UHGV virus genome: UHGV-0327568 | DNA length: 47,422 bases | Source of the DNA: a virus | Reading direction: 5' to 3' (one strand) | Shown here: piece after piece, positions 9,361 to 34,644 of the stretch | Layout of the letters: each line of letters starts with the position of its first letter | Position numbering within the stretch: the stretch's first letter is position 1 | Made by a program: the position numbers and the translations under genes | Notes under the pieces: model-generated | The model's input: the letters and a program-made list of their open reading frames with translations, nothing else | Database searches by the model: none | What the model was told of the DNA's origin: nothing

Positions 9361-9444
9361 CTGATTTATAATAATCAATGCGGCTAGGGGGCACCCGAAA
9401 AGCGACTCATCACCGCCTGCCGCATTCACTTCAATGATGCCCTG

Positions 9445-31697: not shown

Positions 31698-31774
31698 TGG
31701 TTCCCGCGACAGGATTCGAACCTGTAATCATCCGATTATGAGTCGGGTGCTTTAACCAGTTAAGCTAAACGGGA
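31698..31774 (-). tRNA. tRNA-Met/Ile2 (anticodon CAT), CCA encoded
   Basis: Manual cloverleaf fold. Acceptor TCCCGTT/CGCGGGA with one mismatch. D-stem GCTT/AAGC. Anticodon loop CTCATAA. T-arm ACAGG-TTCGAAT-CCTGT. Ends A-CCA. Confidence 0.8.
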
Positions 31775-31777
31775 ATT

Positions 31778-31854
31778 TGGTGCACCATACTGGATTCGAA
31801 CCAGTTACCGATTGCTTAGAAGGCAATTGCTCTATCCTGATGAGCTAATGGTGC
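31778..31854 (-). tRNA. tRNA-Arg (anticodon TCT), CCA encoded
   Basis: Acceptor GCACCAT/ATGGTGC. D-stem GCTC/GAGC. Anticodon stem ATTGC/GCAAT with loop CTTCTAA. T-arm ACTGG-TTCGAAT-CCAGT. Ends A-CCA. Lies 3 nt from the tRNA-Met gene. Confidence 0.9.
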
Positions 31855-31856
31855 GT

Positions 31857-31995
31857 TGTGTTGTGGTGAGTGGAGTCGAACCACCTTCCATCAGTGCGCT
31901 GCTGATTGGGTTACGCGCATCCTGCGGTTACTTATCCGGAATCTTCACCGCAAAACTATTCCCTAGCTCGCCGTTGAGCTTCACCACAACGATAA
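31857..31995 (-). other. tRNA-like remnant / candidate third tRNA (no clean cloverleaf)
   Basis: Minus-strand GGTGG-TTCGACT-CCACT is a canonical T-arm 8 nt from tRNA-Arg. The matching acceptor TGTGGTG...CACCACA lies 127 nt apart, or 91 nt apart with one mismatch. No CCA. Confidence 0.3.
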
Positions 31996-32723
31996 ACCAA
32001 CTCACTTAACCACATGAATCGTACAACTCAAAGGTGGTAAATTGATTTACCTGTTGTGTGCCGGGATTCCACCGGCTCCCATCTGTTTTTTAAGACACTC
32101 ATATATCGTCTGGTCTTGTTGTGGTGGCCGGTGCTGTTCTCCGGCGTTGCCTACCCTTAGTGAATCGGTTTTTCCGCTCGAGTCCGGAAAGGCATGGGAA
32201 ACCGCCCACCCTAAACCATCGCATCAGCCTGCGCATTCACCACAACGGAAAGAGCACTCATTGCATCGACCAAACAGAATCGTCTTTTCGATTATGACTC
32301 TACTTTAACGGTTGCTCTGCTGCGCTAACCCAATGCTCTTACCTGTTGTGTGCCCATTATTAATCACACCGGGCCAGTGCGCCGAATTCATTGACAAGGA
32401 GTCGGAAGACCTTGCTGGTGTTTAGCCGTTAGGCTACTGCCAGATACATTTCTTCGTTTGCATTTATCTTTGTGGTCAGTTTCTAAAAACCCGCAAAGTC
32501 GCCACGAAAACTATCGGAAAGAGCGCTTTAAGCCTTACCACATCTACTTTTGCGCATAAGTCGTCACCTGTGCGGGGATGTCCCCTGAAGCTACTTAACA
32601 GCGCTCTTACCTGATAGTTGCTGGCGTCTCAAATTAACAGTAAATCCGAATGCCACCTGTCAATCTTCCTGCATTCTGCGACCAGCAAGTTAAATCTACA
32701 CCACCAATCAAAAGCTGTCAACA

Positions 32724-32732
32724 TGATATAAT
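32724..32732 (+). promoter_or_regulatory. Extended -10 (TGaTATAAT) upstream of the major tail gene
   Basis: CATGATATAAT lies 35 nt before ATG 32767 (RBS AGAGAGG). Confidence 0.4.
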
Positions 32733-32766
32733 GCGATTGTTTAGCTAAACAGAGAGGATTCTAAAC

Positions 32767-33522
32767 ATGGCTATTTGTGCAAATGATAACGGCATCATCA
32801 CAGGTCGCCAGTCGCTCATCGAGCTGGCTGATGGCTGCTGGGATGCTGTACCAGCAGAGGAAGATTGGAAGTTTTTTGCTCCAATGACCTCAAAAGGCGT
32901 CGACTTCAGCCCAAGCACCACTACCTCAGAGGCTGATGATGGCGATGGCTTTGTTGCGACGCTGGTCACTACCGCAGACCTCACCATTTCTGGTGATTTT
33001 GAGGTTCGCAAGGCTGATAAGGCTGATGAGTATGGCGTACATAACCTCATCAAATACTTTGTCACCGAAGTAAAAGCTCGTCGTCAGCCTTCGCTGTGGG
33101 TGCGTCAGACCACCGGTAATACCGTTGTTGTTGCCTACTGCAACATTACCGCTCTGAGCTACGATGGCGGCACCAACGACATTATCACCGGCTCAGTTGA
33201 ATTCAAGCCATATGATGGCTCTACAGTTAACGTGTCAAGCATCGAAGATTTGACACTGACAACTGATATCAGTGCAGACAAAAGCGTTGCCACTAACGGC
33301 ACTCTGACGCTCGGTCCGGTAGTTGCGGCTGGCGGTGTCGCGCCTTATACCTACCAATGGTATAAAGGCACTTCGCCGATCAGCAGTGCTACTACCAACA
33401 CGTTCACCAAGACCACTGCTGCCGAAGGTGATGCTGGTACGTACTTCTGCCGCGTGATGGATTCGGCAACCAGTCCTGATTACGTTGACTCCACCAAGTG
33501 TATTGTTACCGTTACGCAATAA
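32767..33522 (+). CDS. Major tail (tube) protein with C-terminal Ig-like domain
   Basis: 251 aa. The C-terminal ~80 aa (LTLGPVVAAGGVAPYTYQWYKG...GTYFCRVMD) looks like a bacterial Ig-like (Big_2) domain, as in lambda gpV-type tail proteins. Confidence 0.6.
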   Translation: MAICANDNGIITGRQSLIELADGCWDAVPAEEDWKFFAPMTSKGVDFSPSTTTSEADDGDGFVATLVTTADLTISGDFEVRKADKADEYGVHNLIKYFVTEVKARRQPSLWVRQTTGNTVVVAYCNITALSYDGGTNDIITGSVEFKPYDGSTVNVSSIEDLTLTTDISADKSVATNGTLTLGPVVAAGGVAPYTYQWYKGTSPISSATTNTFTKTTAAEGDAGTYFCRVMDSATSPDYVDSTKCIVTVTQ

Positions 33523-33910: not shown

Positions 33911-34162
33911 TCATACACACTCATCAAGCTGACGGCGCAACATGCATAGCGCACCGCGTGGCATTGCCTGGCGACTCACACCGTCGAAAATCTTCCGGTT
34001 GAGGTAATTGGTCACTCGCGGCCTGATAGCCTGCCAGCACGCCTTAATGCTGCCATTTACCGGGCGGCGCTCGAGCATGGCGAACTTTGCAGATAGTTCC
34101 AGCGTCACCAGTGCATCAAGGTATTGCTCGCAGGCATAGCGATTTTCGTTATCCATCATCAT
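33911..34162 (-). CDS. Hypothetical protein
   Basis: 83 aa; ATGA overlap with the upstream HNH gene. Confidence 0.4.
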   Translation of the reverse strand: MMMDNENRYACEQYLDALVTLELSAKFAMLERRPVNGSIKACWQAIRPRVTNYLNRKIFDGVSRQAMPRGALCMLRRQLDECV

Positions 34163-34644
34163 TTACCATGGTTCTCATGAAAATCATACTTAACCTCCGC
34201 CTTTCTCCTTGCTTCAGCGGCCATATTTAAGTCAGAAAACAATCCAAGATGAATCTTTACGCCATCAACTTTTATGTTTGAGGCCCATTTTTTATGTTGT
34301 TTATCCCATGAAACACCAGTAACACCTGATTTGTTTGTCACCCTGAACTTCATGTTGTGATTATTCTCTTTTGGAGTGACAAGCCTGAGGTTATCTATCT
34401 TATCGTTTGTTTTTTTGTGGTCTATATGATCAATCTGCATTCCGTCAGGAATTTTCCCATTATGCATTTCCCAGATGATGCGATGAACAAGATACTTGAC
34501 GCCATAGATTCCAACAATCTTATATCCATTGCCTCCTACCGCCTTCACCTCGCTTCCGATTTTCACTCTGTTTGAGGTTCTTATCTTCCAGTAAATAGCC
34601 CCATCGCAATAATAAAAAATATCTGACCAATCATTTATCTTCAT
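34159..34644 (-). CDS. HNH homing endonuclease with AP2 domain
   Basis: IDHIDHKKTNDKIDNLR plus KSGVTGVSWDKQHKKWASNIKVDGVKIHLGLFSDLNMAAEA. Third paralog of this type. Confidence 0.8.
   Translation of the reverse strand: MKINDWSDIFYYCDGAIYWKIRTSNRVKIGSEVKAVGGNGYKIVGIYGVKYLVHRIIWEMHNGKIPDGMQIDHIDHKKTNDKIDNLRLVTPKENNHNMKFRVTNKSGVTGVSWDKQHKKWASNIKVDGVKIHLGLFSDLNMAAEARRKAEVKYDFHENHGK

Follow-up and report, generated by a model that had tools for sequence, protein, structure and literature searches.

Trans-translation is the main ribosome-rescue pathway of bacteria, and several phages depend on it. To our knowledge, no virus rewrites the template of the transfer-messenger RNA (tmRNA). The phage tmRNAs that appear in the tmRNA-database papers come from mycobacteriophages and Bacillus phage G only, and they include a form of mycobacteriophage DS6A that consists of the tRNA-like domain (TLD) only (PMC4131195, PMC11915505). 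This TLD-only RNA is reported to inhibit tmRNA (PMC4131195). Here we describe an element, designated M, in the virus genome UHGV-0327568; the whole stretch of 47,422 nucleotides that was analysed is referred to as the window. The window belongs to a Klebsiella siphophage, whose close relatives include ZCKP8, KP591P1, BUCT541, DP01 and MK54. M is located on the minus strand in the gap 31855-32766, which lies between a tRNA-Arg gene and the major tail gene, the latter starting at position 32767 on the plus strand. M is very probably a tmRNA-derived element with an mRNA-like domain only and an arm complementary to the host tmRNA. As the best explanation we propose, with a probability of roughly 0.55, that M would dock on the host tmRNA, mask the host tag template and present its own.

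M spans positions 32513 to 32338, and the covariance-model match in the window (194 bits) ends at 32338. Its tag frame (Table 1), ten codons followed by a stop codon, is present in all 23 elements read, which come from the window, 18 phage loci, 3 E. coli loci and P1. The consensus of these tags is AN(D/E)x..(L/K/R)(A/M/V)(V/A)A plus stop. Among the other tags read are ANDNTFLAVA, ANDDVVLMAA, ANDDLMMVAA and ANDNEFKVAA; the tag of E. coli tmRNA is ANDENYALAA. Within codons 1-3 and 10 the first and second positions are invariant and the third one varies (e.g. GC followed by C in 8, G in 5 and T in 7 cases), and the entropy summed over codons 1-6 is 4.3 at the first, 2.8 at the second and 6.8 at the third codon position. 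Insertions and deletions are absent from the 33 columns of the tag, compared with many in the flanks, and the stop codon is always TAA or TGA. The frame of M clearly shows a coding signature and is under coding constraint. A first-pass annotation of the window, made from the letters without database searches, had seen no credible open reading frame (ORF) on either strand of the gap. As far as proteins are concerned, this holds: the longest ORF (88 amino acids, TTG start, plus strand, 32042-32308) spans segments that are absent or replaced in the close relatives and is therefore not regarded as a credible protein gene. It does not hold for positions 32461-32429 of the minus strand, where the conserved ten-codon frame of tmRNA type is found. 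What this annotation missed is the key feature of the region, namely a tag module of tmRNA type linked to an arm that is antisense to tmRNA of the host.

The structures at and behind the end of the frame, helix 5 (H5) and the pseudoknots PK2 and PK3, were assessed together in 20 sequences. They are 89% paired, compared with 77% in shuffles and 22-46% in slid controls. Changes on both sides were observed in 18 of the 28 pairs, and the covariation score is 0.358 versus 0.154, a level reached by none of 500 shuffles. In front of the frame, the linker of M resembles the sequence CAAAAA-AUAnnnGCAAACGA of the tmRNA gene ssrA. U85 and A86 of tmRNA set the resume frame, and most M homologs keep U at position -5 and A at position -4 of the resume codon. 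M combines a GCN resume codon lacking a start codon and a Shine-Dalgarno sequence, a short tag with an Ala-rich end, a stop codon in helix 5 and downstream pseudoknots, all of which are traits of tmRNA. Wherever tRNA genes are present next to M, it has the same orientation as these genes.

Rfam models of the tmRNA family match M in every locus tested, though below threshold. The best scores lie between 11.7 and 22 bits for RF00023 and between 21 and 34 bits for RF04321 (threshold 47 for both), and the gathering score of RF00023 was not reached. Neither the window nor any of 10 related loci yielded a tmRNA call with ARAGORN. M is not enclosed by an acceptor stem or a T-arm, T-arms being present in separate flanking modules only. 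Pseudoknot 1 (PK1) of tmRNA also has no counterpart in M, as the 5′ region lacks a conserved internal partner (GCGG versus CCA(C/A/U), 2 conserved pairs). tmRNA search tools that are anchored on the TLD miss elements which have an mRNA-like domain only. With its positions 35/43-180, the covariance model R1, which was built from M, matches bacterial ssrA in sense orientation (E 0.001-0.01), and its 5′ part matches the antisense strand of ssrA nt 76-106 (E 0.0025-0.005) in 12 bacterial loci. Such double matches were obtained in the ssrA loci of E. coli, Klebsiella, Serratia, Erwinia, Enterobacter, Yersinia, Citrobacter and Vibrio. Since R1 matches both strands of ssrA, M can be regarded as the reverse complement of ssrA ~55-106 followed by a diverged homolog of ssrA ~69-199. 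In a blastn search of M against E. coli genomes, ssrA itself was not matched, which implies that M is not a recent capture.

Other assignments for parts of M were considered and rejected. The 5′ motif GUUUUCGU...GCGAC...UUUGCGG had been read as an analogue of the tmRNA D-loop together with helix 2a and PK1; this reading was dropped because there is no conserved internal partner and because the whole stretch is collinearly antisense to ssrA. A covalently attached or permuted TLD was looked for by a T-arm scan and among the closing stems of the neighbouring modules Y and Y′, taken as analogues of the acceptor stem or P2. None of these candidates is universal, and none of them carries G3:U70. The layout of a permuted gene was not found either, the hairpins upstream of M being variable and absent in several lineages.

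The anti-tmRNA arm forms the 5′ part of M (Table 1). Its target on ssrA comprises the 3′ half of PK1, the A-rich leader with U85 and A86, the resume codon and tag codons 1-6. The duplex predicted with E. coli ssrA contains 37 bp (35 Watson-Crick and 2 G-U pairs) in six helical blocks of 10, 6, 6, 6, 2 and 6 bp plus one isolated pair, and it has an energy of -41.3 kcal/mol (z -5.5 versus shuffles). All 16 long-type homologs pair with ssrA nt 50/58-104/111 through 37-43 bp at -41 to -50 kcal/mol, and most of them reach z scores of -3.3 to -7 versus composition-matched shuffles. The four short-type homologs (Felix O1-like, Hena2, Berlingot and SSU5-like) have a different arm sequence and pair with ssrA 77/82-106 through 20-25 bp, more contiguously. 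Against GC-matched natural 42-mers of this genome the z score is -4.0, and 6 out of 6424 are as low. Scores did not rise above background with the remainder of M, with reversed ssrA or with the rest of ssrA, and no other collinear antisense stretch was detected when the whole region was scanned against ssrA with a 30-nt sliding duplex. Full-length cofolding favours the M-ssrA dimer by 5-16 kcal/mol. The arm displays conserved complementarity to a defined target beyond chance, as trans-acting antisense small RNAs (sRNAs) do; its duplex with ssrA is a predicted one.

The spacing between arm and tag frame is conserved as well. Of the 16 long-type homologs, 15 have 8-13 nt between the helix end and the resume codon of M, the window having 10 nt, and the Serratia phage has 4 nt; in E. 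coli tmRNA, 11 nt separate the end of PK1 (C78) from the resume codon (G90). The leader and the tag of M have diverged exactly where self-pairing would otherwise arise. In the relatives, EcoC1 and SSU5-like plasmids, promoters set the start a few nucleotides before the 5′ motif of M; in the relatives and EcoC1 the promoter lies ~5-10 nt upstream of UAGUUUUCGU.

From Escherichia to Vibrio, across the Enterobacterales and Vibrionaceae, the target of the arm (ssrA nt 55-107) hardly varies. It is therefore an unusually stable antisense target, which fits the broad host range of M. What variation it has is concentrated in the loop and stem of PK1, with G61U and A69U in Enterobacter, Erwinia, Pantoea and Lelliottia and other PK1 variants in Yersinia, Vibrio and Franconibacter. 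Because the target is almost invariant across the Enterobacterales, the Enterobacter/Erwinia variant of PK1, GGUUUGCCUCGUUAAAAGCC, is alone informative for covariation with the cognate host. M of the Enterobacter phage has the compensating changes CUUUUAAGAAACGGACC and binds this variant at -47.0, versus -44.5 for the E. coli sequence. The compensating form of M occurs only in two Enterobacter phages. On the Enterobacter-type PK1 variant, 15 of the 19 other M elements lose 1.5-5.6 kcal/mol, and M of the Erwinia phage Ea2809 is neutral towards it.

Homologs of the 183-nt M block were found in 771 phage records from unrelated groups. The phages concerned are Kuttervirus and other Ackermannviridae (Vi01, CBA120), Felixounavirus, Kolesnikvirus, Schitoviridae, Drexlerviridae, Chaseviridae, lambdoid phages and P1, with Felix O1-like and N4-like phages among them. 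M is further present in 820 of 5426 complete E. coli genomes, at 150 chromosomal and 731 plasmid places; the examples looked at are a lambdoid prophage, where Q and the holin gene enclose M, and two plasmids, one P1-like and one SSU5-like. It usually adjoins tRNA genes or lies in late or induced operons, and it is almost never annotated. In CS01, M is directly followed by a coding sequence. M of P1 is likewise unannotated and belongs to the leader of the C1-controlled (C1-repressed) ban operon (NC_005856, 68791-69072). It directly follows the annotated "dicF-like region" and precedes trnA/trnT, so that the leader can be seen as a cluster of sRNAs and tRNAs expressed on induction. No description of an M-like element was found in the openly accessible literature searched, which included the tmRNA-database papers and the Pas sRNA preprint. 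The Pas sRNAs and STnc100 were considered as possible equivalents of M and are different RNAs. A near-threshold match to STnc100 (44.1 versus 47 bits) was observed ~0.9 kb downstream of M in an SSU5-like E. coli plasmid (locus L021, 2917-3085), between tRNA-Thr and tRNA-Ser. Two small tRNA-like elements that are not called by ARAGORN were seen just past M in other phages. The one in Salmonella phage Mushroom (L006, 1365-1446) has G3:U70, A73 and CCA, and it matches the Rfam tmRNA model across both model ends with E 1.4e-5. The one in CBA120 (L005, ~1390-1475) is a mini-helix with a GAAA-capped hairpin and C-CCA.

We propose the following route for the action of M. In the beginning, the accessible 5′ seed UAGUUUUCGU would pair with the single-stranded tag codons 3-6 of the host tmRNA. 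The pairing would then zip through the resume codon and the leader into the 3′ half of PK1, burying the host tag template in an intermolecular helix that stands in for PK1. The leader and the resume codon of M would be left 10-11 nt from the helix end, which equals the spacing between PK1 and the resume codon in the host. The alanyl-tmRNA-SmpB complex would still rescue stalled ribosomes, and translation would resume on the phage template and add the phage tag. The outcome would be a two-piece tmRNA in effect, made up of a host acceptor part and a phage coding part. In E. coli tmRNA a simple helix can take over from PK1, and -LVA is the ending of tags that serve as efficient ClpXP degrons. This makes an intermolecular helix in place of PK1 plausible, and likewise tags with the endings -AVA or -MAA. 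What the sequences show directly is conservation, covariation, a coding signature, complementarity and a distribution; that M is transcribed and processed, pairs with tmRNA in vivo and supplies a tag that is used and benefits the phage is inferred from them. An exchange of the tag template on the host tmRNA is the best mechanistic reading, and we give it an even chance. The wider proposal is slightly more tentative: a widespread class of phage and prophage RNAs, with members in P1, Felix O1-like, Vi01/CBA120-like, N4-like, T1-like and lambdoid phages and in SSU5-like plasmids, may reprogram trans-translation by hybridising to the host tmRNA, displacing PK1 and the host template, and supplying a viral resume codon and tag.

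A number of observations weigh against the template exchange. When natural 42-mers are used without GC matching, the z score is -2.5 and the arm is in the top 1% only (57 of 5924). RNAduplex is permissive, the arm-ssrA duplex is broken by loops and bulges with a longest perfect run of 10 bp, and its formation must open PK1 at a cost that the energy model leaves unscored. The host-matched covariation comes from two related Enterobacter phages and one neutral Erwinia case, and the column-wise test for preservation of arm pairing is confounded by register shifts in the alignment (A3) and uninterpretable. Since a 175-nt insertion lies between promoter and arm in the window, processing has to be assumed. 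The phage tags still look like degradation tags, which makes the benefit of a swap unclear. The imperfect duplex of ~40 bp might also be a substrate of RNase III, leading to inhibition rather than to a template swap. M could then be a pure antisense inhibitor of the host tmRNA that blocks the resume codon and the tag or triggers cleavage by RNase III or RNase E, its tag module being a relic or an aid to reach the tmRNA-SmpB-ribosome complex. Such an inhibitor would fit the same arm-ssrA complementarity, a long imperfect duplex could be cleaved, and the TLD-only tmRNA of DS6A, reported to inhibit tmRNA, is a precedent for phage interference (PMC4131195). A relic would, however, decay, and the tag of M has kept its coding signature, with a period of 3 nt, synonymous changes at the third positions, a fixed stop and an absence of indels; the frame-setting leader and its spacing are conserved as well, and blocking rescue without a stop codon would trap ribosomes. 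We thus regard pure inhibition as unlikely. The spacing, U and A at -5 and -4, the coding constraint on the tag, the conservation of the target and the host-matched variant suggest template replacement rather than mere inhibition.

Abundant structured RNAs derived from tRNA operons can be sponges, as is known for 3′ETS-leuZ, and M mimics the mRNA-like domain of tmRNA. It might act as an untranslated decoy that titrates the SmpB tail, S1, RNase R or Hfq and needs no duplex; this is quite improbable, as it would leave the coding signature, the 41-nt collinear complementarity to ssrA and the host-matched variants unexplained. A host-independent phage tmRNA, composed of M and a phage tRNA-like partner such as Z, Z2, a T-arm-bearing Y or the Felix O1-like TLD-like element, is a shade less probable still. 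tRNA-like modules with acceptor stems and T-arms do flank M, A-CCA follows Z in KP591P1 and Z2 in BIS08P22, and the TLD-like element of Mushroom with its G3:U70, A73 and CCA comes just after M. However, there is no universal partner (M is followed by a coding sequence in CS01 and by a terminator in Pylas and UTK0001), Z and Z2 lack G3:U70, M has no complementarity to these modules, and in several phages M starts at the promoter without an acceptor strand. The last alternative is that the region has no function as RNA and is either a mosaic left by tRNA decay and recombination or a DNA site (pac/cos, origin). The mosaic has in its favour that the window differs from the close relatives by an insertion and by replacements and lacks their tRNA-Ser; yet every module recurs in unrelated phages and shows compensatory changes there, its orientation towards promoters and tRNAs is constant, and the genomic contexts differ between phages, which makes this alternative very improbable. 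The first-pass annotation had named a decayed tRNA array, structured non-coding RNAs (ncRNAs) and a packaging or replication site among its options. The decayed array is not supported: the T-arm is part of the conserved module Z2, which has homologs in P22-like phages and Skatevirus with compensatory stem changes. For a pac/cos or replication site no support was found: the same elements recur in tRNA arrays, the Q-to-lysis gap, the leader of the P1 ban operon and a PL leader of unrelated phages, and this unlikeness of contexts argues against a role as a DNA site. Of these options, that of structured ncRNAs is supported: the minus strand of the region encodes a series of conserved, structured RNAs whose helices are backed by covariation.

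The features of the region are listed in Table 1. It is best explained as a minus-strand ncRNA-tRNA operon that would be transcribed from the sigma-70-like promoter and end with tRNA-Arg and tRNA-Met. The leftward-directed promoter sequence (block D) is invariant in 5 relatives. The putative promoter of the tail gene was not called by the scan tool because its -35 element is weak. No terminator was predicted in the window for the ncRNA-tRNA operon; in Pylas and UTK0001 a terminator lies ~100 nt past M. The scans with ARAGORN and Infernal/Rfam that had been recommended for the region detected just tRNA-Met and tRNA-Arg. The likewise recommended comparison was made with four aligned relatives, in which blocks of 100% identity alternate with replaced blocks. 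In this alignment the 175-nt insertion is found in the window and absent from the four relatives, and Z2 takes the place of their tRNA-Ser(GCU). To judge from these blocks, the tRNA-Ser is replaced in the window and not decayed.

Table 1. Coordinates of the features of M and of its surroundings in the window
Feature	Position	Strand	Remarks
Anti-tmRNA arm of M, UAGUUUUCGUGGCGACUUUGCGGGUUUUUAGAAACUGACCA	32473-32513	minus	~41 nt; collinear with host ssrA nt 55/57-106
Single-stranded A/U-rich linker of M, CAAAGAUAAAU	32462-32472	minus	U at -5 and A at -4 of the resume codon; 10-11 nt long, a length like that of C78 to G90 in E. coli tmRNA
Tag frame of M, GCA AAC GAA GAA AUG UAU CUG GCA GUA GCC UAA (ANEEMYLAVA*)	32429-32461	minus	GCA is the resume codon
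Helix H5 of M, outer CUGG/CCAG, inner UAGCC/GGCUA	32415-32443	minus	stop UAA in the loop; outer stem 95% paired; compensatory changes in 4/4 pairs
Pseudoknot PK2 of M, stem CAAGG/CCUUG	32382-32414	minus	loop CCGA pairs with downstream UCGG; 94-96% paired; 6/9 pairs changed on both sides
Pseudoknot PK3 of M, CGCACU/GGUGUG and GCCC/GGGC	32352-32381	minus	91% paired; stem B covaries in 4/4 pairs
Sigma-70-like promoter	32693-32721	minus	-35 TTGACA 32721-32716; 17-nt spacer; -10 TAGATT 32698-32693; 10/12 consensus matches; predicted start ~32686
Extended -10 element, TGATATAAT	32724-32732	plus	probably serves the major tail gene (start codon 32767) as a divergent promoter; read from the letters; invariant in relatives
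Leader and hairpin module Y′	32516-32690	minus	closing stem GGUAAGAGCGCUG (32611-32599) / AGCGCUCUUUCC (32527-32516); window-specific 175-nt insertion
Module Y, long hairpin	32247-32343	minus	conserved closing stem GGUAAGAGCAUUG / GAGUGCUCUUUCC; variable body; upstream copy of the 16-mer (32354-32339) is the 5′ shoulder
Module Z, cloverleaf-like	32115-32246	minus	9-bp closing stem GUUGUGGUG/CACCACAAC; D-like hairpin 32234-32220; T-like hairpin 32145-32127
Spacer with hairpins	31991-32114	minus	second copy of the 16-mer (32062-32047), degenerate Y-like shoulder before Z2; first ~70 nt common to other Klebsiella and N4-like phages
Module Z2, tRNA-like	31858-31990	minus	9-bp acceptor stem; D-arm 31980-31965 (GG in loop); variable hairpin; H-type pseudoknot 31918-31890; T-arm 31885-31869; occupies the place of the relatives' tRNA-Ser
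tRNA-Arg(UCU) 31778-31854 and tRNA-Met(CAU) 31698-31774	31698-31854	minus	ARAGORN, Rfam; 3′ end of the same transcription unit

All repeats reported in the first-pass annotation exist, with positions off by 0-9 nt. The 16-bp direct repeat TTACCTGTTGTGTGCC is located at 32047 and 32339 exactly as described. The sequence TCACCACAACG was placed correctly at 31981, and its second copy is found at 32237 instead of 32238. The inverted partial copy consists of GCGCTAACCCAATGC at 32322, and not at 32313, versus GCGCGTAACCCAATCAGC on the minus strand at 31918-31901. The hairpin GGGGATGTCCCC is shifted by one nucleotide, from 32573 to 32574. The T-arm GGTGG-TTCGACT-CCACT is present on the minus strand at 31885-31869, its distance to tRNA-Arg being 14 nt and not 8; the acceptor partner of this module is GTTGTGGTG at 31990-31982, which is paired with CACCACAAC at 31868-31860. 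By our estimate, an exact 16-mer repeat is expected by chance ~1e-4 times in 0.9 kb. The repeated motifs are halves of conserved minus-strand RNA helices, namely of the closing stems of Y′/Y and Z/Z2, which accounts for the 16-mer and the 11-mer repeats.

Y′, Y and Z are predicted multi-branch structures in which long conserved stems enclose variable bodies. Y′ is predicted to fold as a closed multi-branch hairpin with -36 kcal/mol, and it contains the hairpin GGGGAUGUCCCC at 32585-32574, which is the one noted in the first-pass annotation. In the closing stems of Y′ and Y, GGUAAGAGCRYUG pairs with YRGYGCUCUUUCC, and Y′ differs from Y by a compensatory change. The stem of Y flanks M with compensatory variants in P1-like, lambdoid, Cronobacter and Enterobacter phages. 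Some bodies of Y or Y′, namely those of KP591P1, Pylas, UTK0001, VLCpiS10a and Enterobacter MII_001, carry canonical T-arms directly before the conserved closing strand (...CAGUGCUCUUUCC); these modules look like tRNA-like precursors with paired leader and trailer, and VLCpiS10a and UTK0001 share one T-arm-bearing body across phage families. Module Z, which holds the second copy of TCACCACAACG, has conserved ends and a variable middle in 7 phages and prophages; KP591P1 and BUCT541 have A-CCA behind its 3′ strand. The D-like loop of Z (GGCUGA) is complementary to the T-like loop (AGAUCAGCA), with 6 bp in the relatives and 4 bp in the window; this loop-loop pairing could be a base-paired mimic of the tRNA elbow. 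Both CACAAC upstream of Y (32339-32354) and CACCACAAC at the 3′ end of Z (32115-32126) complement GUUGUG(GUG) at 32231-32246, and the same was observed in locus L145. As the partner is shared, the extended stem of Y and the acceptor stem of Z are mutually exclusive, and they could form a conformational or processing switch. Most likely, Y′, Y, Z and Z2 act as punctuation of tRNA type for processing and stability (RNase P/E) that frees M from a polycistronic precursor; additional roles of the modules themselves are possible.

Z2 is 90% paired overall (acceptor stem and D-arm 100%, T-arm 95%), and compensatory changes in 4 homologs are found in three helices, those of the acceptor stem, the pseudoknot and the T stem. 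Nothing was called within Z2 (31858-31990) by ARAGORN or Rfam. In the P22-like phage BIS08P22, Z2 lies in the PL leader just upstream of the antiterminator gene N and is followed by A-CCA; in Skatevirus it precedes tRNA-Ile, and Skate has a Y-Z2 unit without M. The homologs are located at 1501-1631 in locus L144 and at ~701-836 in L145 and L146. The alanine identity set of a DS6A-type TLD (G3:U70, A73 and CCA) was found in neither Z nor Z2, both of which carry U3-A70; the 3′ tail of Z2 reads ACAA in the window; BIS08P22 has ACCA and Skate has ACUU. With a tRNA, Z2 shares the acceptor stem, the D-arm with GG, the T-arm with its UUCGA loop and, in one homolog, the encoded A-CCA. It differs in the acceptor stem of 9 bp, in having a hairpin and a pseudoknot instead of an anticodon arm and in escaping ARAGORN and Rfam. 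On these comparisons, we consider Z2 to be a conserved tRNA-like RNA family that is not in Rfam. A reading of Z2 as a mini-tmRNA was rejected: its seven-codon frame AVKIPDK*, present in the window and BIS08P22, is lost in Skate.

The variable body of Y (32326-32336) is complementary to the pseudoknot loop of Z2 (31904-31918) over 9 nt exactly, or 14 nt with one bulge, and this corresponds to the inverted partial copy mentioned above. It could be an intramolecular or regulatory contact but also a matter of chance (expectation ~0.1); the complementarity was not conserved in the other phages searched. In Skate, a 12-nt stretch of the Z2 pseudoknot loop (~785) recurs inverted in the tail tube gene (L145, 62-73), with a chance of ~0.002. 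Two further features of the window lie outside the gap. An int-alpA RNA at 9377-9440 on the plus strand (42.6 bits, gathering score 35.8) is the sole curated RNA family in the window beyond the two tRNAs. Just downstream of the tail gene, an ORF of 161 amino acids (34159-34644, minus strand) resembles an HNH homing endonuclease; the relatives have different small ORFs there.

If the proposed template exchange takes place, a virus would for the first time be seen to hijack tmRNA by replacing its template, and M would be the first mRNA-like domain in nature that is provided in trans to a tmRNA complete in itself. Rescued proteins would receive a C-terminal peptide specified by the phage, and control over the tag on the products of stalled ribosomes would constitute a new layer of host takeover. 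It would also explain long unannotated intergenic stretches such as the P1 ban leader, the tRNA regions of Felix O1 and Vi01 and the lambdoid Q-to-lysis gap, and it would offer a natural design for programmable tagging via tmRNA. Even as a mere inhibitor of tmRNA, M would represent a new RNA weapon against the host, directed at a target of high conservation.

M shares several features with the one-piece tmRNA (SsrA, RF00023). These are the A/U-rich leader with UA at -5/-4, the GCA resume codon, the stop codon in the loop of helix 5, the downstream H-type pseudoknots, the ten-codon tag that starts with AND and has an Ala/Val-rich hydrophobic end, and the weak but reciprocal model matches. Unlike the one-piece tmRNA, M has no acceptor stem, T-arm, CCA or helix 2, its length is ~175 nt, and an antisense stretch replaces PK1. 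The two-piece or permuted tmRNAs of alpha- and beta-proteobacteria and cyanobacteria (RF01849, RF01850, RF01851, RF04321) resemble M in that, under the proposed model, the coding RNA would be a separate molecule held by base pairing, and the best Rfam matches of M are to permuted models, though below threshold. The natural pieces, however, come from one permuted gene and are paired via the acceptor stem and helix 2, whereas M is encoded by a virus and lacks a 5′ acceptor strand; its predicted partner is the mRNA-like domain within an entire host tmRNA, whose template M would displace. With trans-acting antisense sRNAs, prophage anti-sRNAs (AgvB, AsxR) and 3′ETS-leuZ sponges, M has in common a 5′-terminal seed, a phage intergenic origin and a predicted cotranscription with tRNAs, from which it is probably freed by tRNA processing enzymes. 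In contrast to these RNAs, its target is a housekeeping ncRNA, tmRNA, and not an mRNA or sRNA, its predicted pairing extends over ~40 bp instead of 7-12, and it carries a translatable template. The TLD-only tmRNA of DS6A is, like M, a phage-encoded fragment of tmRNA, and it is thought to interfere with host trans-translation (PMC4131195, PMC11915505). DS6A keeps the tRNA-like domain only; M, with its mRNA-like domain only and the antisense arm, is the reciprocal fragment.

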